25,144 nt of DNA, taken from the IMG/VR virus record IMGVR_UViG_3300037851_000085, positions 1-25,144 of that record. One strand, given 5' to 3'. Made by a program: the position numbers and the translations under genes. The DNA comes from a virus (taxonomy: Duplodnaviria > Caudoviricetes). This document shows, piece by piece, positions 1,642 through 24,610 of this stretch. Numbering within the stretch: the first letter of the stretch is position 1; each line of letters begins with the position of its first letter. The notes under the pieces were generated by a model that was not told where the DNA came from, ran no database searches, and was given only the letters and a program-made list of their open reading frames with translations.

Positions 1642-2544
1642 TTATTTTTTAAACCTCTTTACAAACCTTTTTCCTTTATACCTTTTCCATGGAATTCCCT
1701 TAATATGGGGATTAATCCTTTTCCACTTATTCTGAGAAAGTAAATTTTCAATCTCAGGGCCAGCAGAAGGTAATGAACTCCTATCTGCAATTAATAAATC
1801 TAAAAATGATAACTGGCCTCGCGCTGATATTGCAATTTCAAGTTCTAACTGACTGACCTGACCTCTAGTAGGAGTTAGAACAAATGAAGGAGTTTCAAAT
1901 TCTACGAATGATAACTGACCTCTAGTTGGAGCTAATGGAGTCTCAAATTCAACGAATGAGACTTGACCTTTAGTCGATTTATTAGGAGTCTCAAATTCAG
2001 CCTGACTGACCCGACCGCGAGTGACTAAATTAGGAACTTCTAATTCACTAAAAGATAATTGGCCTCGCGTTAGTAAATTAGGAGTTTCTAATTCTGCATG
2101 ACTGACTTGACCTCTAGTTTGAATAGTTGGGACTTCGAATTCGGCCTGAGAAATCTGACCTCTAGTTTCAACTGATGGAACTTCTAATTCTGTTTGACTT
2201 AATAAGCCTCGCGTTTGAACGATTGGAACTTCGAACTCAGCCTGACTTAACTGACCGCGAGTTGATTTATTTGGTGTTTCAAATTCAGCATAACTTAACT
2301 GGCCTCTAGTTGATAATGATGGAGTTTCTAACTCCGCCTGACTTAATTGTCCTCTAGTAGGAACTACAGGAACTTCAAATTCCGCCTGACTTAGTTGGCC
2401 TCTAGTAGTTTTTAATGGAACTTCTAATTCAGCCTGACTGACTTGACCTCTGGATGCTAAACTAGGAACTTCTAACGTAGCATGAGATACCTGACCTCTT
2501 GTTGGTACAGGACCAGAAGAACTGAAGAAGATAATAAGTGACAT
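1642..2544 (-). CDS. 16-aa tandem-repeat protein (putative fibre/virion appendage) with basic C-terminal tail
   Basis: About 15 copies of xTRGQ[LV]SQAE[FL]E[VT]Pxx; C-terminus KWKRINPHIKGIPWKRYKGKRFVKRFKK. Confidence 0.75.
   Translation of the reverse strand: MSLIIFFSSSGPVPTRGQVSHATLEVPSLASRGQVSQAELEVPLKTTRGQLSQAEFEVPVVPTRGQLSQAELETPSLSTRGQLSYAEFETPNKSTRGQLSQAEFEVPIVQTRGLLSQTELEVPSVETRGQISQAEFEVPTIQTRGQVSHAELETPNLLTRGQLSFSELEVPNLVTRGRVSQAEFETPNKSTKGQVSFVEFETPLAPTRGQLSFVEFETPSFVLTPTRGQVSQLELEIAISARGQLSFLDLLIADRSSLPSAGPEIENLLSQNKWKRINPHIKGIPWKRYKGKRFVKRFKK
1790..2508 (-). repeat. Degenerate 48-bp coding tandem repeat, about 15 units
   Basis: Units such as TGACTxAxxTGxCCTCTAG and GGAACTTCxAAxTC recur with a 48-nt period matching the 16-aa repeat. 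Confidence 0.85.
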
Positions 2545-7220: not shown

Positions 7221-9296
7221 ATGACTAGAGAACAGGCTACTAAAACTACTCGCGAACTATTAGTCAAATATGGACTCAAGGATTGGGGAGTCCGTCTTAA
7301 CAATAATCCTAACTCCTACTATCTAGGTCTGTGCGTTTATTCTGATAAGTGTATCATTCTGAATGGGCATCATATTGACTTGCATGGTCAGGGAAACGAT
7401 GCAGAACTAATCAATACGATTAGACATGAAGTGGCCCACGCGATAGTTGGACCGGGGCATGGTCACAATGAGGTCTGGGCAGATAAAGCAAGGGAAATCG
7501 GATGCGACAATACTCTTCCTTGTGCGAACGTCAGTTTGAAGCCTGAACTAATCGACGCAATCAGGTCAGGCGCAACAATTGAAGTAGAGTTTACAGAACA
7601 GGTCATTAGGACTCCCCATTACAAAGTGACCAGACTCCAAGACCGCTGTATCGAATGCGGAGAAGTAGCGAAAGAGAAATTTTCCTTCGAAGACGAAGAT
7701 ATAGAAGGAAATTTCTGTAAATTCATTTACCTCGAATGCGGACACGTGAAGAAACTAATTATTCCTCGCGCTACTCCCTTCGAATCGCTGGTCAGTAATT
7801 GGTGGAAAGATGAAGTCTCTACTTGTGAACATGAGTGGAATACATCCTCCCATACCAAGTGCGAGAAGTGTGGAGAATTTAGACTCTATCCATTTCAAGT
7901 CGAGGGAGCGAGATTCATCGAAACTGCACTAGCTACAGGTAAGGGAGCAGGCATATTCGATGAAATGGGATTAGGTAAAACTGTTCAGTCCCTCGCATAC
8001 ATTCGATACCATCAGGAATTGACGCCAGTTCTTTTCATCGTCAAGTCTGGTATCAAGTTCCAGTGGTTCACAGAAATTCTACGTTGGCTCTCTCTGGATT
8101 TTACGCCACAAATTATTGAGACTAGTAGGGATTTCATTATTCCTCGTCTCAAGGCGTATATCATCAGTTACGACCTACTCCGGAGAATGTCGCAGGACAA
8201 GATTGATAAGATTGCTCCAAAGCTAGTGATTCTCGACGAATGTCAGCAGATTAAGAATGCTGATTCTACAAGAACACAAGAGGTCAGAAAGATTATTCGC
8301 AATCAGGAAGTAAAGGTCATTCCTTTGAGCGGGACACCTTGGAAGAATCGAGGTTCTGAATTCTTTCCCGTCTTGAATATGCTGGACCCAACTAAATTCA
8401 ACTCTCACCAAGGATTCATCAACAGGTGGGTAGACAGATATTGGGAAGGCAATAGATTGCGCGAGGGTGGTATCAAACATCCTGCGCGATTCAAGGAATA
8501 CGTTAAGGACATCATCATCAGGCGTGAGAGACAGGAAGTAATGAAGCAACTCCCTGTAATCAGCAGGACTAAACTGAATGTTCAGTTAGAAGAAATTGAA
8601 CAGAAAGCCTATGATGATGAAGTCAGTGAATTTGTAGAGTGGTATAACGAATTCATCAGCGAGGGTCATGAATTAGATGGTATGCAACTAATGGCGAAGA
8701 TGGCCAGAATGCGGCATATCACTGGACTCTCTAAGATTCCTGCTACTCTCGAATTCGTAAATGATTTCGTAGAGAATACTGAACGTAAGATTGTAGTATT
8801 CGTTCATCACAAGGATGTAGGGTCAATCCTTTACGACAGAGTTAAAGAGAATCACGGGACAGAAATGCCAGTCCTGAAACTCTCAGCGGACTTGGATAGT
8901 GAAGCGAGGCACGAGGTTCAAAAGACCTTCAATGAGTCTCCTCGCGCTATTCTAATCGCTTCGACCTTGGCAGCAGGTGAAGGTCTGAATCTTCAGACTT
9001 GTGCAGACTGTATCATGCATGAAAGACAGTGGAATCCTCAGAATGAGGAACAGGCAGAAGGGAGATTTATTAGAATCGGCCAACAGTCTAATACAGTCAA
9101 TGCAACATACGTCGAAGCCGATGACACAATTGATGCCCACATTGCAGGTCTGGTGGAGAAAAAACGCCGTGCATTCCACGCGGTAATGAATAAGGGAGAA
9201 CTTCCTCGCTGGAATGAATCGGCAATGGCTAAGGAACTGGCAGATATTATCGCTATGAGGTTCATGGCGAAGAATAGGAAGAAAACTAATGGCTAA
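7221..9296 (+). CDS. SprT-like metalloprotease - Zn fingers - SNF2-family helicase/translocase fusion
   Basis: N-terminal IRHEVAHA...GHGHNEVW (SprT-type HExxH..H); CIEC/ECGH/CEKC; LYPFQ, DEMGLGKT (I), ILDECQ (II), LSGTP (III), GEGLNLQ (V), QAEGRFIRIGQ (VI). Confidence 0.92.
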   Translation: MTREQATKTTRELLVKYGLKDWGVRLNNNPNSYYLGLCVYSDKCIILNGHHIDLHGQGNDAELINTIRHEVAHAIVGPGHGHNEVWADKAREIGCDNTLPCANVSLKPELIDAIRSGATIEVEFTEQVIRTPHYKVTRLQDRCIECGEVAKEKFSFEDEDIEGNFCKFIYLECGHVKKLIIPRATPFESLVSNWWKDEVSTCEHEWNTSSHTKCEKCGEFRLYPFQVEGARFIETALATGKGAGIFDEMGLGKTVQSLAYIRYHQELTPVLFIVKSGIKFQWFTEILRWLSLDFTPQIIETSRDFIIPRLKAYIISYDLLRRMSQDKIDKIAPKLVILDECQQIKNADSTRTQEVRKIIRNQEVKVIPLSGTPWKNRGSEFFPVLNMLDPTKFNSHQGFINRWVDRYWEGNRLREGGIKHPARFKEYVKDIIIRRERQEVMKQLPVISRTKLNVQLEEIEQKAYDDEVSEFVEWYNEFISEGHELDGMQLMAKMARMRHITGLSKIPATLEFVNDFVENTERKIVVFVHHKDVGSILYDRVKENHGTEMPVLKLSADLDSEARHEVQKTFNESPRAILIASTLAAGEGLNLQTCADCIMHERQWNPQNEEQAEGRFIRIGQQSNTVNATYVEADDTIDAHIAGLVEKKRRAFHAVMNKGELPRWNESAMAKELADIIAMRFMAKNRKKTNG

Positions 9297-17112: not shown

Positions 17113-17445
17113 ATGCCTCGCGTTCCGTTCTTCGTCGAAGCTCTTGATAAGATTAAGAAGATTCACGAAGCGAAGAATAATGACTATGCAGACTCAAATA
17201 ACCCGTTCAGTAATTTTGACTTTACTGAACAGGTTATGAGTATCTTTAAAAATGAAAGAGATAAGACATTCATCTGGCCGATTGCCACTAAGATTGCGAG
17301 GCTATCTACGCTTCTCAATAGTGGCAACCGGCCTCAGAATGAATCAATCGAGGATTCTTTCTTAGATATTGCTACATATATTCTTCTTTGGAGATGCGAT
17401 TATTTGAATCGAATTAATCGTCGGCTTCCTCCTACTGATGAATGA
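17113..17445 (+). CDS. DUF1599 / Nmad1-like all-alpha protein (nucleotide pyrophosphatase-like)
   Basis: AKNNDYA...NF...KIARL...ESIEDSFLDIATY motif set. ATG 17113 lies just after the tRNA. Confidence 0.75.
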   Translation: MPRVPFFVEALDKIKKIHEAKNNDYADSNNPFSNFDFTEQVMSIFKNERDKTFIWPIATKIARLSTLLNSGNRPQNESIEDSFLDIATYILLWRCDYLNRINRRLPPTDE

Positions 17446-20400
17446 ACTCTTGCAAGTCAATTACTTCTTCGGGCATAAATTGCCCACCAGTCCATGAACC
17501 GATAGGATCTTCTTCAGGGAAGAATACTGGCTGCTGTTGGCCCTTCTCGTAGGTTTGTGCCCCCATACCTACCGCAGAAGCCATACCTAATGGTAATGCA
17601 CTTGGGTCATCTCGATAAATCTGAGCTAAGTCTCCAAGAACCATTGGAATATATGCCTGAGCAATTCGGTCTGCGATATGGAACGGTTTGTATTCAGAAG
17701 CAGCTAGTAAGTCAAATCCTAACTTGAGTGTTGGGTGAAGTTTAGAAGTGCCAAAGTCATAGAGTAATTCTTCTCTAGTCTTTGCCTTGAATCCTTCACC
17801 CATTGTTTTCAATTCATTAGTAGTAGATGGAGTATAACCTCCTGAAGCGAATCTAGCAGCAAGAACTAGATACTGTTGAAATCCCCCTGCCACATCCAGT
17901 CGGTTATTTCCTACCTTAATTTTACCAAAGTCAGAGTTAGTTGGGTTAGTGCTAACTTCTGCACCACCCATTTTAGCGAGAGCCATAGACCCTAGCCAGA
18001 AACTTCCTATCGCAATCAGTGATTTTAGATATTGCTGTCGAATCTGTGGGGGCAGAAACATATATGTCCCCGGATTCAACATTCTGATTCGACTAGCCAT
18101 CAGTCGGCCAGAGAAGAATACATCAGAGAATAGTGGCGCGTGGCGTTCTAAGTCTAATGTCTGAGTAGTTTTATTTTTACCATACTGAAACTTATACTTA
18201 GCCCTACCTGTCGCATCATTGACAAATTCAGCTAACTGTCTCGCGTATAGAGGATTAGCTTTCAAGTCAATGCCCATATTCTGAGCATCCTTTACCAGTC
18301 GATTAAACGTGTTTGCACGCAAGTCATTCAAGTATGCAGTGTAAGCACGATTGGACGCGCGGACCATTTTCCCGAACATGGGAATCTGTTCAGCTAAGGA
18401 AGACTTGAGAATTTCCTCGCGCTGACTAATCAAGTCAGTCAGTTCAAGTCCTGCATCTTTAGCTAATCCATTCTTAACGTTCTCAATTTCCATTAATGCA
18501 TTCTTATGAGCTAAGTATGCAGTCTCATTTCCAAATGCTTCGAACATAGGCTTCCATGCCTTAGTCCATTCCCTAGTTCCAATTAATGCTAGTCCTTGAC
18601 GGAATGGTGCAGAGATATCACCTGCTGCGGTCATACCTCGTGCTAGTTCATAGATTTTCCGTCTAGTAGATTCTGGTTGGTTATTTCCTGAAGTAGTTTT
18701 TACTGTGTCTTCAGGTCCAACTCCACTATTTCTAGCGCCTTTAGGATTTTGTCCTTCTCCTTGCGTGAAATTCGATTGTCCGTCATAAGCAACTCCCGTT
18801 CCCAGGAGAGGGTCATCAGTGCTCGCTGGGCGTTTCCTGCTATTCTCATAGATTCGAAGAAGTTTTTGTACTTCTGGGTTAAATTGTCCACTTTTGATAT
18901 CTCCAAAAGGTTTAACTAACATATCCAATATAACATTAGTTTGTTGTCTACCAAGTTTATCTAATAGATCTGCATGACGATATGCAAAACTAGTATCATG
19001 GCCTCCCCCCGGAACATGGGCAAGTTCATGAGTTTGAGTTGCAAATAATCCGGTAGCAATTCTGTCTGTAGGATATGGATCTTTTTGAGCTACTTTTAAT
19101 AATTCAAAAAGATTAATTAGAATCGCAGATTCCTGCCCGGAAGCACTAGGGTTAGGAATATGAATTCCGAATGTTGCAGATTTATTAGCATCAGGTGAGG
19201 CAAATAAAATACCAAATTTCTTTAATTTTGTACTTGGCTTTTTTGCCCAGGGTAAATTTTCTGCAACATTTGATAATAATTGATTAACATTTAGGATTTT
19301 TCTAGTAATATTTACAAATATCGGATTAGTTTGAAGTTCTAATATTTCATCCGGAGTAAATCTTGCACCCTGATCTACGAAACTAACTTCTCCTTCAGGA
19401 TGGGAGTGTATAATAGACATTTCATCATAACTCCTTTGAATTTTATTAGTTTTATTAATTAGGGCATCTTTAACAATATTGTCTTGAACCCATTCTATAA
19501 TTTTAGTTGTAGTAGTATGATTTAACTGTTCTCGATTTGCCGTAAATGGATAATCTTTATGACCCTCCTCTACCAATGACCTGACATCTACAACAATTTC
19601 ATCGGGAGCATTGGGTAAAGATATCCCATAACTATCATGAGTAGTTTTTTGAAACAATCCTTTATTTAAGATTCTTGTAGTATAATCCCCAATTTCTCTA
19701 CCGGGGTTATCGTTAAAGTATATTTTAATTTCTGCTCCAGGGGTAGTAATTACACCTCTTTCAGGCATGTTATTAGTTAAAGAATTATAAGTATATTTAG
19801 AAAGAGAAAATCCAGGATCATTTGGATCATCTAACCAAGTTCTTAAATCGCCATCAATCTGACGATCATAAGATACTACAGATTCAATATTAGAAATATT
19901 TGTGGAGTATCCCGCAATATTTTCTATCATGTCCTTGGCCTGATAGAGACTAGTATGTTCAGGATAGAATGTTGTTACCTCTAATCCTGTAGGAGTATCT
20001 GGGGATACCCGAGTCTTTTGAACATTAACTCCAACAACTTGGTCTTTCCATTCTTTAGGATTGCCTTCAACAGTATATTTGTATCTTATTCCATCAGCTT
20101 CATCTACAATTGAAGTAATTCGAACGTAATCTCCTCCTAAAATAGGAGAAGCCTTAGCAAATCCAAATCCACCTGATGCAGTAGTGCTACCAGCTTTACC
20201 TGTTTCTCCTACATTTGTAAACTCATGAGCCAACTGTTCGTAAGTTAGTCCTCTACCATAGTCCCTTACTGTCATACTAGGGGCTTTTCTGCCTACAATG
20301 GTAGGATGATCAGTTTCTAATGCTCTAATAATTTTAATTGGAGCATTAGTTCCTATAAATCTGTGTTCGTCACTGGCATTCTGGATTAATTCCTTAGTTG

Positions 20401-22267
20401 CGATTACCGGGGGGTCTCCAGAATATAGAGAACTACCTAATACATCAAGAACTCTAGTAGTAGCACCACCCATTGCAATATTAGGAAGTCCTGAAGTTCC
20501 AACTGTAGTTGCTTTCATTTCCTGAGGTTCAGTTAGTTCTTTGAATCTTTGGATTGCAGCTTCTAAAACTTTTTGAGTTCTTTGTGCAGTCCTAGGATTA
20601 GGTAATTCCCATTCAGCATCAAGATTTTCTTTTAATACTCTGATATCTAATGCTAAAGATTCAAGGTCAGTTTCTTGTAAAATTTCAGATATTCTTGAAT
20701 CTGGAATGTCTCCACCCATTTTTTGAATATCTTCAATTGGGGGAGTTCTTACTGGTCTTTTTGGATTAACAAATTTAGGCCCAACAGTGGTGATAGGTGG
20801 AGCAGGTATTTCTGTAGACGTAACAGGTCTGGGAATTTCATCTCGAATTACACCTTCTAGACCAATCTGTCCTTCAAAAGTTAACTCTCCTGTCGGTTTA
20901 ATCAACGGTTTAGGTGGTTGTAAATTAATCGGTGCAGGAGGTTCTGGAGTTACCCCCGCGATTCGAGCAGCGACTTCAGGATTAAATCCCCTCTTAATTA
21001 ACGCCATCTGTGCCATGACTTGCATTTCAGGAGTATTTACCTGCTTTTGAACACGAGGTTCAGTAATAGGATTACCAGCGTAATCAAATCTTTTACCAGT
21101 AGTTAAGTCTATGAACTGTCCGGGACCAATCTGGAAAATTTCATGATTAGTCGGTAAGTCTGGACGAATTCCTTGATTAACTGCGAGGAATGGATCTGGT
21201 TGTGGATTTAATGCACCTTCTTGTCTAGCTAAATTATAGGGTAAAGTTGTATCTGCAATACCCTTATTACCTGCAAGGAATCTAGGCGCAATAGAACTAG
21301 GAATCATATCTCCGGGCGGAGTTGCATTCTCAGGAAGTAGACCTAATGGCGCACTAACTGATGGACCAGCATCCGCGGGGAGTTGTTTAGTTTTAGGTAA
21401 TGTAGTTGCTCTTTGAATATATTCATTCCTGAGAGCTTCATCTAACTGTTGAATTAATGGTTCAATACTATCTCTTGCATTCTTTTTAACTGTATTATCA
21501 ATTACTCTATCAATATTTCGACGTTCTTCTAATCTTAATAATCCTTCTGCTACTAGTTGTGCTTCTGTTTTGGGTTTAGGTGCATAATTCCCTACTTCGG
21601 GCATCCAGTTTTGCATTCCCAAAATGCCTCCTGCGATTTCAGGAATAGCCATATATTTTTTAGCTAAGTCCGGAGTATAACGGTCAAAATTACCAGAAAA
21701 TAATGGGTCCGCAATATCAAATACACTTGCAGGATTTTCAGGATCAAAAATAGTTCCTACTCCATGAATAATTTGAGGAGCAGATAATGCTTTTGTTGCT
21801 ATGGTGGCACGTTGTCCACTTTTAGCAACACCTGCCATAGCCTTACTCATTTCTTCAACAGTTTTACCTGTTTCTTGTAATGCTTTATATCCACGATGTA
21901 ATTGTTTTGCAGTTTGAGCAGTTCTTGCACCAGATAAAGTTAAAGCAGCACTCAGTGGACTAGTGAAACTACTAGCAACTTCACCTAGTCCTTGATATGA
22001 ACCGTATCCTAATCCCTTAAAAAATCCAGTCCAGTAGTCATCACTAGTATCTTTATTAGCCCATTCTTGAGCTTTCCTCGCGCCATGTTCAGCAGGTGCA
22101 GTTAATAGTGGTTTATTAGCCCAATTCCATGCTTTTTTAAGCACAGAGTCCCCGGAATCTCCAGTCTCCTCAGCAAATGGAGAATCAGGCTCATCAGGAA
22201 TAAATCCTGGTGGGTCAGGAATAAATCCTGGAGGATCTTTAGGCGCCATTAGCCAATCCTTTCCCAA
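17432..22267 (-). CDS. Large putative internal virion/ejection protein with GHKL (Hsp90-like) ATPase and HExxH metallopeptidase module
   Basis: N-terminal DPPGFIP x2 and Gly/Ala-rich helices; KELIQNASD, VRDYGRG, GGFGFAK, TGLEV (GHKL boxes); THELAH..GGGHD; helical C-terminal domain. Last and largest of three consecutive ejection-like genes. Confidence 0.85.
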   Translation of the reverse strand: MGKDWLMAPKDPPGFIPDPPGFIPDEPDSPFAEETGDSGDSVLKKAWNWANKPLLTAPAEHGARKAQEWANKDTSDDYWTGFFKGLGYGSYQGLGEVASSFTSPLSAALTLSGARTAQTAKQLHRGYKALQETGKTVEEMSKAMAGVAKSGQRATIATKALSAPQIIHGVGTIFDPENPASVFDIADPLFSGNFDRYTPDLAKKYMAIPEIAGGILGMQNWMPEVGNYAPKPKTEAQLVAEGLLRLEERRNIDRVIDNTVKKNARDSIEPLIQQLDEALRNEYIQRATTLPKTKQLPADAGPSVSAPLGLLPENATPPGDMIPSSIAPRFLAGNKGIADTTLPYNLARQEGALNPQPDPFLAVNQGIRPDLPTNHEIFQIGPGQFIDLTTGKRFDYAGNPITEPRVQKQVNTPEMQVMAQMALIKRGFNPEVAARIAGVTPEPPAPINLQPPKPLIKPTGELTFEGQIGLEGVIRDEIPRPVTSTEIPAPPITTVGPKFVNPKRPVRTPPIEDIQKMGGDIPDSRISEILQETDLESLALDIRVLKENLDAEWELPNPRTAQRTQKVLEAAIQRFKELTEPQEMKATTVGTSGLPNIAMGGATTRVLDVLGSSLYSGDPPVIATKELIQNASDEHRFIGTNAPIKIIRALETDHPTIVGRKAPSMTVRDYGRGLTYEQLAHEFTNVGETGKAGSTTASGGFGFAKASPILGGDYVRITSIVDEADGIRYKYTVEGNPKEWKDQVVGVNVQKTRVSPDTPTGLEVTTFYPEHTSLYQAKDMIENIAGYSTNISNIESVVSYDRQIDGDLRTWLDDPNDPGFSLSKYTYNSLTNNMPERGVITTPGAEIKIYFNDNPGREIGDYTTRILNKGLFQKTTHDSYGISLPNAPDEIVVDVRSLVEEGHKDYPFTANREQLNHTTTTKIIEWVQDNIVKDALINKTNKIQRSYDEMSIIHSHPEGEVSFVDQGARFTPDEILELQTNPIFVNITRKILNVNQLLSNVAENLPWAKKPSTKLKKFGILFASPDANKSATFGIHIPNPSASGQESAILINLFELLKVAQKDPYPTDRIATGLFATQTHELAHVPGGGHDTSFAYRHADLLDKLGRQQTNVILDMLVKPFGDIKSGQFNPEVQKLLRIYENSRKRPASTDDPLLGTGVAYDGQSNFTQGEGQNPKGARNSGVGPEDTVKTTSGNNQPESTRRKIYELARGMTAAGDISAPFRQGLALIGTREWTKAWKPMFEAFGNETAYLAHKNALMEIENVKNGLAKDAGLELTDLISQREEILKSSLAEQIPMFGKMVRASNRAYTAYLNDLRANTFNRLVKDAQNMGIDLKANPLYARQLAEFVNDATGRAKYKFQYGKNKTTQTLDLERHAPLFSDVFFSGRLMASRIRMLNPGTYMFLPPQIRQQYLKSLIAIGSFWLGSMALAKMGGAEVSTNPTNSDFGKIKVGNNRLDVAGGFQQYLVLAARFASGGYTPSTTNELKTMGEGFKAKTREELLYDFGTSKLHPTLKLGFDLLAASEYKPFHIADRIAQAYIPMVLGDLAQIYRDDPSALPLGMASAVGMGAQTYEKGQQQPVFFPEEDPIGSWTGGQFMPEEVIDLQEFIHQ

Positions 22268-23511
22268 CCTTCAGGAATAGGTTGATTAGCAGGGAGTTGA
22301 CCAGTTCGTCCATCTTGCTTATTACGAATTCTGATATAACCCTGTCTAGTGGGTTGAGGTCTATTATCGGATTTCGGAGCAGCTCCAATAGTAGGTTCTC
22401 TCTTACCATAAATGGCTTCTTGTAAATTTTGCCAATTCTGTTTAGATTCAGGACTAGCACCCGGACCTGGAGGTTTCAATTCAAATGAACCATTCTCAGG
22501 CTTACGCCTAAAGTATTTTCTTATTTGTGGATAACGCTGCCAAATTTCATTAGCTTTATTATACTGGTCAGTTCTTTGCTGAGTGGGAAGCATTCCTGCT
22601 TCACCACTATCTCTACCAACTTCTTTACTTCCCGCAGGGGGAGGTGGAATTTTTCTATCACGTGGATTCCCCACAACAGGTGGAGCATTGGGATCTGGTG
22701 GTTGATAGTATCCACTACCATAGACTAATGCACGATCATATGCAGCAGTATTATTAATACCTGCAAGTCGTTCTCTATTAGTGGCTCTAAGTGCCTCTAA
22801 ATCAGCATCACTTAAATGAATGGATTTAATACCAGTATTGAATCTCCTATTTGGATCTTTAGTATCAATTGCCCAAAGATATCCATCAGCACTAGACTGA
22901 ATATCATAATCAGGCATCATGGACTTTAATTCATAAATCTTAGTTCTAGCTTTTGCATTTTCATCCTGATTACGCCAGTGTTCTGACTGAGCTTCAAGAC
23001 GTTCATCTCGAATTCCAATACTACCTAACTGAGTGGCCAGCATTCTTTGATTGGAATTGTCTTGATTTTCATCTCTTGCGAGAGCCTGTAGCGGACCTAA
23101 TTGTTCTTTCCAGTCTCCTAACTGATCATTAAATCTTGCATCTAATACTGCATCTGCACCTTGAGGACCATAACCTAGTCCTACAATAGATGCACCTAAT
23201 TTACGCCAGAATCCCGGCTTCTCTCTTTGAGGATATTGTCCTAAATGTTCTTCTAACCTCTGAGAATATTCATTCTTAGGCTGATACATAGCCATGATTC
23301 TGTCGAACACACTCTGAGGCGAAGCCTGACCGCGAGGATCTTCTGCAATTTGGGGACTGATATTAAAATCCGGTGGAGTTAAATTTCCGAATCCTTCCTG
23401 AACATTAGGATTCAAGAAATCAACAGGAGGTAGCTGCTGCTGTTGACCAATCATCTGGTCAGGAGCAAACAGATTCTTCATCCTCAGATTGAAATACGGA
23501 TTAATTGCCAT
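22249..23511 (-). CDS. Putative internal virion/ejection protein
   Basis: Probable start MAINPYF at 23511, 1 nt after the upstream stop. Gln/Pro-rich, KPGFWRKLGASIVGLG amphipathic motif, C-terminus IPEGWERIG, no Cys. Confidence 0.7.
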   Translation of the reverse strand: MAINPYFNLRMKNLFAPDQMIGQQQQLPPVDFLNPNVQEGFGNLTPPDFNISPQIAEDPRGQASPQSVFDRIMAMYQPKNEYSQRLEEHLGQYPQREKPGFWRKLGASIVGLGYGPQGADAVLDARFNDQLGDWKEQLGPLQALARDENQDNSNQRMLATQLGSIGIRDERLEAQSEHWRNQDENAKARTKIYELKSMMPDYDIQSSADGYLWAIDTKDPNRRFNTGIKSIHLSDADLEALRATNRERLAGINNTAAYDRALVYGSGYYQPPDPNAPPVVGNPRDRKIPPPPAGSKEVGRDSGEAGMLPTQQRTDQYNKANEIWQRYPQIRKYFRRKPENGSFELKPPGPGASPESKQNWQNLQEAIYGKREPTIGAAPKSDNRPQPTRQGYIRIRNKQDGRTGQLPANQPIPEGWERIG

Positions 23512-23512
23512 T

Positions 23513-24610
23513 TTAAACCCAAGGATAAATTGCACCACCAACGGTTTGGCCTGCGGCACCAAGTCCAGCAATATTTTTCATTGCTTGCATCCAGTTACCT
23601 GGAATTTGAGCTTGTCCCTGTTGGGCTCCAATAAGTCCTAATGATAATGCATTCTGCAATCCGGCAGCTTGTAACTGTTGGCCCTGAGATTGTAACATTT
23701 GATTACCAAACATATTAGCCATACCAGGAGTAGCACCATACATACTGGTCATACCTCCCATACCAAATCGCTTACCCTGATTAGTCATTTCAGCAATTTG
23801 GGCTTCAATATTAGTAGAGGCATCAGAAGCAGTTTGAGACTGTTCCCTCGCCAATCGACTCATCGCAGCGTTATAACCGGGACTGTATCCGCCCTGTAAA
23901 GAACGGTTACGGTCCATTCCCTGACGTGCGGAGTCATAAATAGAACGAATAGGTGCAACACCACGCGCTCGAATATTCGATAAATCTTCAGGACTGTATC
24001 CACCAGTATCAGCCCACTTCTGATACTGATTCATTAAGTTAGAATAGTCTCCTAATGCCCCCTGCATAATACCATTGCCGTATCCCTGACCGGGAGCACC
24101 GTTAGTAGCGTCTAACCATTGGAATCCTTGCCCACCTCGCATTGCACCCTGAATGACATCAACAATTCTACCATCAGGTAATTGGACCTTACCTGCAACT
24201 CCCGCAGCATTACGAAGAACTTTAATACCCTGTTCCCCTAATTTACCTTCCATTGCAATTAGTTCATCAGGAGTTCTGGGAGTTCCGAACTGCTGACTAA
24301 AAGATTGTTCATTCCAGTTTTGTCCTCCTCCGCCACCATATCCAGTAGAATATGGCTGTCCCATTCCTCGCGTTGGAGTATCAGTTCCATTACCCTTGTA
24401 ATAGGGACTACCTGTAGGACTGTAATGAGGGACAGTAGAACCATAACCAAAGGTGCTACCATACTGGGGTTGATTAGACCCAAAGTAGGCATTATTTAAC
24501 GCACCAGTTTGATTACCTAATCCTTGCTGAACACCAGTAAGATATCCTTGAGACATCTTCTGTTGTTCATTTAACTTATTTTGCCCACGTTTCTGATCGC
24601 CTTTTGCCAT
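23513..24610 (-). CDS. Gly/Gln-rich putative pilot/ejection protein
   Basis: 365 aa, G/Q/M-rich, no Cys, C-terminal IAGLGAAGQTVGGA; GGAGGAGG RBS. Confidence 0.72.
   Translation of the reverse strand: MAKGDQKRGQNKLNEQQKMSQGYLTGVQQGLGNQTGALNNAYFGSNQPQYGSTFGYGSTVPHYSPTGSPYYKGNGTDTPTRGMGQPYSTGYGGGGGQNWNEQSFSQQFGTPRTPDELIAMEGKLGEQGIKVLRNAAGVAGKVQLPDGRIVDVIQGAMRGGQGFQWLDATNGAPGQGYGNGIMQGALGDYSNLMNQYQKWADTGGYSPEDLSNIRARGVAPIRSIYDSARQGMDRNRSLQGGYSPGYNAAMSRLAREQSQTASDASTNIEAQIAEMTNQGKRFGMGGMTSMYGATPGMANMFGNQMLQSQGQQLQAAGLQNALSLGLIGAQQGQAQIPGNWMQAMKNIAGLGAAGQTVGGAIYPWV

Follow-up and report, generated by a model that had tools for sequence, protein, structure and literature searches.

The linear virus record IMGVR_UViG_3300037851_000085 (Duplodnaviria; Caudoviricetes), which is about 53% complete and whose entire 25,144 nucleotides (nt) form the window analysed here, carries on its minus strand (17432..22267) a gene for a protein of 1611 amino acids (aa), or 1605 aa if counted from the first ATG. 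This is probably an ejection protein of the polyvalent type, third in order and the largest in the phage. In its interior, at residues 592-1148, we find a module that combines a GHKL ATPase, a transducer, a long helix, and a Wss1/SprT-like zincin in a single predicted model (predicted local distance difference test (pLDDT) 90.7, predicted template-modeling score (pTM) 0.83), which was built on an alignment with 60 of 71 relatives. An initial annotation, made from the sequence letters, had described this region as an Hsp90-like ATPase joined to a zinc protease and carried as cargo; structure prediction returns a GHKL (Bergerat) fold with transducer and a zincin domain.

Structure and conservation of the ATPase-zincin module

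All features of the gene lie on the minus strand. The ATPase domain, with an N-terminal strap, occupies residues 592-789 (19901..20494) and includes E626, N630, D669, G671, G673, G699-K705, and T760-G761. Model and alignments place an S5-fold transducer at residues ~835-935 (19463..19765), whose loop YPFTANRE contains the invariant R912. A 32-residue helix at residues 917-948 (19424..19519; helix 319-350 of the model) joins the two halves of the module by linking the transducer to the zincin, which motif and model assign to residues 955-1148 (18824..19405). H1080, E1081, and H1084, with H1090 as third ligand, form its candidate metal site (18998-19030), and the HExxH falls at the end of model helix 468-485. 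Every motif listed in the initial annotation is present in the 1611-aa open reading frame (ORF) where it had been reported: ELIQNASD (residues 626-633), DYGRG (669-673), GGFGFAK (699-705), and TGLEV (760-764) in the ATPase, YPFTANRE (906-913) in the transducer, and HELAH (1080-1084) plus H1090 in the zincin. The catalytic residues of both parts are invariant among relatives, which places these motifs beyond chance.

A search with residues 595-1145 among proteins of 886-2820 aa returned 72 matches, the window's own protein included; in all of them an HExxH follows the ATPase, and the C-terminal domain is shared by most. Seventy-one modules, again including that of the window, were aligned (P0074, which aligns in the ATPase part only, was excluded), and E626, N630, D633, D669, G671, G673, K705, R912, H1080, E1081, and H1084 are invariant in all 71, with H1090 kept in 66. 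A wider alignment of the window with 60 of 78 viral modules at 18-46% identity, from which near-duplicates and a few others were dropped, retains E626, N630, D669, G673, K705, R912, and the HExxH in 61 of 61 rows. Position 671 is G in 40 of these rows and A in 21, and as third metal ligand 45 rows have H and 16 have E, an exchange of the kind expected for a putative metal ligand. The four Bergerat motifs (ExxxN, DxGxG, GxxG, and T/G) are present and invariant, or nearly so, in both alignments.

Residues 3-334 of the model align as one unit with GRP94 (Z 20.3, root-mean-square deviation (rmsd) 3.4 over 275 residues); TRAP1, ParE, SMCHD1, and MORC2 match the same segment at Z 17.9-18.9, and MutL also aligns. 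The likeness to the Hsp90 family (TRAP1, GRP94, HtpG) covers the N-terminal ATPase and the first middle subdomain (Z 18.9-20.3), extends to an arginine in an N-x-R-E-like loop, and is also seen in a profile search (TRAP1, E 1e-7). However, where Hsp90 continues with the remainder of its middle domain and its C-terminal dimerization domain, the module has the long helix and the zincin. The profile NF010683 scores 15 bits against a cut-off of 455 and covers the N-terminal 123 residues only, and the model after residue ~350 matches Wss1. Membership in Hsp90/HtpG was rejected on these grounds, and the Hsp90-type chaperone of the initial annotation has to be given up. Judged by the predicted model, ATPase and transducer are comparable to the front of an Hsp90 or a MORC protein, yet the module is no Hsp90; structure alone leaves the GHKL branch unsettled, with SMCHD1, MORC2, and ParE within about two Z units of the Hsp90s in these model comparisons.

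The nearest PHROG is that of rIIA, matched at its N-terminus only (phrog_2979, E 1.4e-5, positions 14-134 of 846), and many of the top viral structure matches are of the rIIA type. T4 rIIA-type proteins, in which a GHKL ATPase is followed by a variable C-terminus (PMC7824862; statements on cited papers refer throughout to the accessible portions of their text), share with the module a phage GHKL ATPase. But rIIA stands alone, whereas the module is embedded in a putative ejection protein and has a zincin at its end, and the similarity is that of the ATPase part. Membership in rIIA was rejected, given the short span of the profile match and template-modeling (TM) scores of ~0.35-0.38; no match to a neighboring rIIB was found among 15 proteins scanned in the window, a record with about 53% of its genome. 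Pfam gives a weak match to HATPase_c only (E 0.057), and Atlas look-alikes at 0.95 bear PF25856 (MPN635-like GHKL proteins).

Residues 357-514 of the model resemble yeast Wss1 (Z 8.0, rmsd 3.6, 119 residues). Since this fold match is modest by itself, the zincin assignment rests on the invariant motif. The Wss1/SprT minigluzincins likewise combine an HExxH and, six residues downstream, a third ligand, but the zincin of the module differs from them in being covalently tied to a GHKL ATPase, and the window protein has no match to Pfam WLM or SprT. Among 19 relatives scanned, WLM is matched in one (L042, E 8.5e-4, below the cut-off).

Distribution of the module

The module is flanked by a conserved N-terminal block (residues 7-335, 21263..22249; profile match E 1e-23, from a profile trained on sequences that include the window protein), which is common to module-less orthologues, and by a conserved C-terminal domain (residues 1200-1580, 17528..18670), for which the model and weak structure and look-alike matches suggest an LPD38-like chassis of the ejection protein. 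Relatives of the C-terminal domain are encoded in 356 viral stretches. We searched twice by this domain alone, keeping the best 80 of the 356 stretches in the second search, and counted distinct proteins with the same neighboring genes. In the resulting clade of 39 proteins, the whole module is present in four, the zincin without the ATPase in four, and neither in 27, the remaining four being cut off. Four of the module-less orthologues are only 691-711 aa long, and in these the N-terminal block and the C-terminal domain are directly joined, 10-35 residues apart. This bears out the picture, drawn in the initial annotation, of a cargo module between conserved ends. Counted over clade loci without dereplication, the N-terminal block is present in 16 of the 28 that lack the module and in 14 of the 28 that bear it. 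None of 40 more distant proteins with the C-terminal domain contains the module.

A quick tree was computed for the neighboring helicase from 50 rows, including loci found through the module; on it, the 17 module-bearing phages require 13 changes, no fewer than with shuffled labels (112 of 500); such counts do not separate gain from loss. The three nearest neighbors of the window in this tree (L100, L125, and L134) are without the module, and in the zincin tree the window groups with L016, whose helicase is distant. The cassette is real, conserved, and mobile, and it is both optional and exchangeable. The zincin-only orthologues (L108, L110, L126/L127, and L141) have lost the ATPase and the transducer and retain an intact HExxH. 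Their matches begin at the long helix, as the boundaries in L108, L110, L127, and L141 show, and the approximately unbiased (AU) test indicates that the four forms are of separate origin (p 3e-49).

In a wider set, an HExxH follows the ATPase in 106 of 114 distinct ATPase-bearing ORFs (median length 2394 aa), found in searches ranked by whole-module similarity, which favors complete copies; one search contributed L241-L250 only, the remainder being largely the same contigs as in another search. Three of the eight ORFs without the motif leave the contig, three stop early inside the module, one matches at its N-terminus only, and one is broken by an N gap and has the zincin in the next ORF. The carriers include giants with PLxRFG/DarB-like ends, LPD1, LPD5, LPD39, ART-PolyVal, DdrB-ParB, InPase, and MutS-I; RadC, a 2H phosphoesterase, and an N-terminal transglycosylase are further partners. 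One giant (L034:5870-12634) holds the module and an FAD-dependent pyridine-nucleotide-disulphide oxidoreductase domain (E 3e-9). At L038:9809-15150 the carrier is split into a module protein of 812 aa and, after it, a distinct giant-protein fragment of 970 aa, and P0054 (887 aa) ends shortly after the module.

The ATPase-zincin pair also occurs alone, in proteins of 543-613 aa (P0077, L094, L289, and L294). The 613-aa member (L094:9779-11620) has an N-terminal extension and lies amid housekeeping genes of a bacterial contig, which, judged by eye, are presumably such genes as tgt, radC, and hflX. Word-index searches for stand-alone forms gave two and four matches from 8000 candidates each; P0077 is clearly stand-alone, and P0078 has a weak ATPase match with no zincin motif after it. 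L096 (558 aa, ATPase plus HExxH) aligns over 114 N-terminal profile columns and was not counted as a close member. Atlas look-alikes are mostly viral clusters of 495-631 aa, some of them with MPN635_N, which may be whole proteins or fragments. Because the stand-alone forms have no polyprotein to process and the pairing is near-obligate, the zincin belongs with the ATPase. The module is a family of more than 100 distinct sequences, stand-alone members included, and is not peculiar to the window phage.

According to Iyer et al. (2017, PMC5512222), polyvalent proteins have zincins as their hub. Like the polyvalent proteins with a zincin-like MPTase in that account, the carrier is large and multidomain, is encoded in the late region, and holds an HExxH zincin as part of swappable enzyme cargo; unlike in those proteins, the zincin is here firmly paired with an ATPase, and the two also form proteins by themselves. 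The main text of PMC5512222 contains no occurrence of GHKL, HSP90, or HATPase, and its supplementary domain tables may bear on this point. In the accessible text of PMC7824862, GHKL is named for topoisomerase and rIIA only, PMC3417536 treats GHKL ATPases and zincins separately, and the ejected N4 polymerase contains an HExxH domain (PMC13434306).

The nearest account is that of Tiamat (bioRxiv 10.64898/2026.09.30.754977), in which a GHL ATPase with a transducer arginine is followed by Wss1-like folds. However, Tiamat is a host defense protein of more than 1000 aa with tetratricopeptide (TPR)-like repeats and a nuclease, and its Wss1-like folds are without HExxH. ATPase-DUF3684 fusions often end in a metallopeptidase (same source), so that the pairing of ATPase and zincin folds has cellular precedent in Tiamat and these fusions. 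Membership of the module in Tiamat was rejected: neither the window protein nor the module has a Pfam or PADLOC match to it, and the gap between transducer and zincin is too short for a DUF3684 core. In the literature searched, which covered few subscription papers, we found no account of a compact, active-site-bearing cassette of this kind in phage proteins. The cassette is new as a variant of polyvalent ejection-protein cargo; polyvalent cargo itself is already known.

Proposed function and alternative explanations

The window protein is large and multidomain, its enzyme domains are unrelated, and its gene lies in a virion gene block. Together with genes for proteins of 365 aa (23513-24610) and 440 aa (22249-23571), whose positions suggest the likely first and second ejection proteins, it ends the minus-strand block in rising order of size, and the replication block faces the opposite way. 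The same order is kept in relatives, where homologs of the two smaller genes stand before the large gene in clade phages; the 365- and 440-aa proteins have no Pfam or PHROG match. In L003 and L008, proteins with the same C-terminal domain come after a phrog_376 tail protein and a phrog_418 internal virion protein, and the position after tail and internal virion genes is the slot of gp16 in the gene order of T7. The predicted C-terminal domain (pLDDT 86.7) resembles structures predicted for viral proteins of the name "large polyvalent protein" (E 5.7e-4 for the best match with a name), an LPD38 cluster at 0.95 is among its Atlas look-alikes, and its single match in phage records comes from an uncultured record. 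Among 12 structural genes of the clade that were scanned (four in L006, three in L013, and five in L016), none matched a PHROG. Gene order and the polyvalent company of relatives lend support to the ejection-protein identity proposed in the initial annotation, and the carrier is likely the phage's largest ejection protein.

The domains, the catalytic residues, the optional and exchangeable state of the cassette, and its stand-alone forms are observed; we infer packaging and injection, ATP hydrolysis, proteolysis, and a target. The reading that we prefer, although tentatively and at slightly less than an even chance, is that the ATPase-zincin cassette is delivered with the DNA as an optional and swappable part of a likely ejection protein and, once in the host, cuts a host protein as an ATP-gated protease. 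The carrier would be packaged and ejected, and the N-terminal block and C-terminal domain would perform the ejection, given that the ~700-aa orthologues contain little else. ATP binding in the cytoplasm would then close two copies via their N-terminal straps; strap-mediated, ATP-dependent closure of dimers is established for long GHKL ATPases. R912 and the long helix may relay the nucleotide state to the zincin, located where Hsp90 holds its clients, and substrate capture would thereby be coupled with cutting. The target might be a factor present in some hosts or niches only, e.g., a protein that serves in defense or is bound to DNA, and this would account for the cassette being gained and lost so rapidly. 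Because the cassette is dispensable, a role in conflict would be more plausible than one in assembly.

Several observations weigh against this reading. The module has no match, and no cultured carrier, in 50,697 phage records, and with P0077 as query the phage records gave only partial matches (at most 30% cover, mostly rIIA N-termini) among the 25 of 92 listed. The best match of the C-terminal domain among 48,161 solved chains reaches Z 4.2, and no curated polyvalent or virion profile of Pfam or PHROG passed for this domain of the window protein. The Wss1 match of Z 8.0 is at a level that the tool calls common, and AQ_1354, a nuclease of the YbeY family, scores about equally. The loss of the ATPase on four independent occasions, with the zincin kept, implies that the zincin is useful without ATP gating, and a conserved tag directly upstream of the module hints at a role in self-processing.

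The tag is PQEMK at residues 581-585 (20513..20527) and fits the pattern P-x-x-[MA]-[RK]; its candidate roles are those of a processing site that is cut, a docking peptide, or a segment of the strap. The pattern, which was written after viewing the alignment, occurs in the 28-aa stretch before the module in 37 of 66 proteins, compared with 5 of 692 background windows. It takes the form P-Q-x-[M/A]-[R/K] at variable spacing, 23-31 residues before the conserved LGSSLY, and in the 23-residue spacing class its M/A coincides with the start of the stand-alone P0077. A matrix built on these sites, circular as a test for the module-bearing proteins, finds none in 31 module-less clade proteins (four of these cut off at the 5' end). 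Extra copies of the strict pattern elsewhere number 11, against 3.4 expected, in 21 zincin-bearing proteins and 4, against 3.1, in 27 without the zincin. More distant carriers have looser look-alikes, recognized by eye only.

The tag counts, the retention of the zincin after four losses of the ATPase, and the autoproteolysis proposed for polyvalent MPTases (PMC5512222) all favor an explanation in which the zincin is the polyprotein's own processing protease, which would cut at the tag and free the cassette, the ATPase being a payload in its own right (a clamp of the rIIA kind) or no more than a trigger responsive to host ATP. However, 29 of the 66 proteins are without the tag, two looser patterns show little or no contrast, and no tag was found between the module and the C-terminal domain. 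Moreover, the stand-alone members retain the zincin with nothing to release, and four long orthologues (1348-1983 aa) are without an HExxH before the C-terminal domain. We consider this explanation unlikely, but one to be taken seriously; an ATP-gated protease and self-processing may both hold. In either case, the tag offers a concrete handle on the autoprocessing proposed for polyvalent proteins in 2017 (PMC5512222).

A folding aid would be an improbable alternative. TRAP1 and GRP94 are the best structural and sequence matches, and ejection proteins must refold once through the tail (PMC13434306), so that one could imagine a chaperone of the Hsp90 kind for the refolding of ejected proteins and for their trimming or removal, or a DNA-pulling motor; yet 27 of the 39 clade proteins do without the module, the 691-711-aa orthologues directly join both conserved ends, and the client-binding and C-terminal domains of Hsp90 are missing. 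We give similarly little probability to the idea that the zincin fold is a metal hydrolase acting on nucleic acid or nucleotide rather than protein, or that it serves for binding, with the ATPase clamp as its driver in either case. This idea would suit the near tie of AQ_1354 (Z 7.8) with Wss1 and the judgment that the Wss1-like folds of Tiamat are non-proteolytic (bioRxiv 10.64898/2026.09.30.754977). However, the general-base glutamate E1081 is invariant in the module, whereas the Tiamat folds are without HExxH. YbeY is not known to have a glutamate at the position equivalent to E1081. The closeness of rIIA, the phage family nearest to the ATPase domain by profile and by many structures, raises the further alternative that the protein is unpackaged, made late, and acts in the infected cell, e.g., against superinfection, as rIIA-type ATPases may. 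The rIIA sequence similarity stops after ~130-190 residues, though, the gene slot in L003 and L008 follows tail and internal virion genes, and in L059 a homologous cassette is fused to a lytic transglycosylase, all of which makes a late role quite unlikely.

The preferred reading of an ATP-gated protease delivered with the DNA can be extended to an ATP-dependent protease that is built on a GHKL clamp, injected with the DNA, freed at the junction tag, exchanged between unrelated ejection proteins, and destroys a specific host defense or DNA-bound protein before phage gene expression; in this full form we regard it as doubtful. There is a fair chance that the cassette represents a new kind of ATP-dependent protease. 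Textbook ATP-dependent proteases are built on AAA+ rings, and the passengers best known from ejection proteins comprise polymerases, transglycosylases, and ADP-ribosyltransferases. A compact zincin gated by a GHKL ATPase and acquired, lost, and exchanged by phages would point to counter-defense or takeover in the first minutes of infection. As a unit of ~550 residues with a high-confidence predicted fold and natural stand-alone and ATPase-less versions, the cassette makes ATP coupling, self-cleavage, and substrate trapping directly testable.

Genomic setting and base composition

The plus-strand replication genes encode an SNF2 helicase, a PD-(D/E)xK nuclease, a family A polymerase fused to a uracil-DNA glycosylase (UDG), and a 413-aa primase/helicase-like protein. 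The SNF2 helicase (7221-9296, plus strand) has an N-terminal SprT-like zincin (PF10263, E 7e-6) and is a second protease-ATPase fusion in the genome. Close to the terminase, within a group of tail-like genes, lies the gene for a 300-aa protein (1642-2544, minus strand) that consists mostly of ~16-residue tandem repeats with a TRGQ core. All seven matches found in the genome collection lie in metagenome bins; the archaeal matches, two in number, are themselves contigs of the clade. Contigs or proteins of the clade lie inside Nitrososphaerota metagenome bins (L090, L091, and P0034), through either mis-binning or an archaeal host; the L090 protein equals the viral L023 protein in length and domain coordinates.

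The initial annotation had noted that the module is AT-rich and free of CTCGCG. GC content is indeed lower in the module (0.356) than upstream (0.39-0.40) and in the C-terminal domain (0.43), but this is no mark of import: GC at third codon positions is 0.19 in the module and equally low in the N-terminal part (0.18-0.19), compared with 0.36 in the C-terminal domain. It is low across the first 1150 codons, with much the same profile in the 17 orthologues examined. Recent foreign import was rejected as an explanation of the composition, low third-position GC being a family trait. CTCGCG is over-represented in the window (29 occurrences, 4.4 expected) and has no copy in the module, but the absence reaches only P = 0.14. 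For the core CTCGC, a word picked post hoc, the module has none against 4.6 expected (P = 0.009, uncorrected for its lower GC).

Words with a CGCG-like core are strongly over-represented in AT-rich genomes of the clade. CCTCGC occurs 42 times in the window (5.5 expected), GCGCGC 98 times in L164 (4.7), and CGCGCG 58 times in L023 (1.2), and L125 and L134 are among the loci with such words. The excess is found in phages with and without the module, and several clade members show none. GTAC and GATC are avoided in the window.

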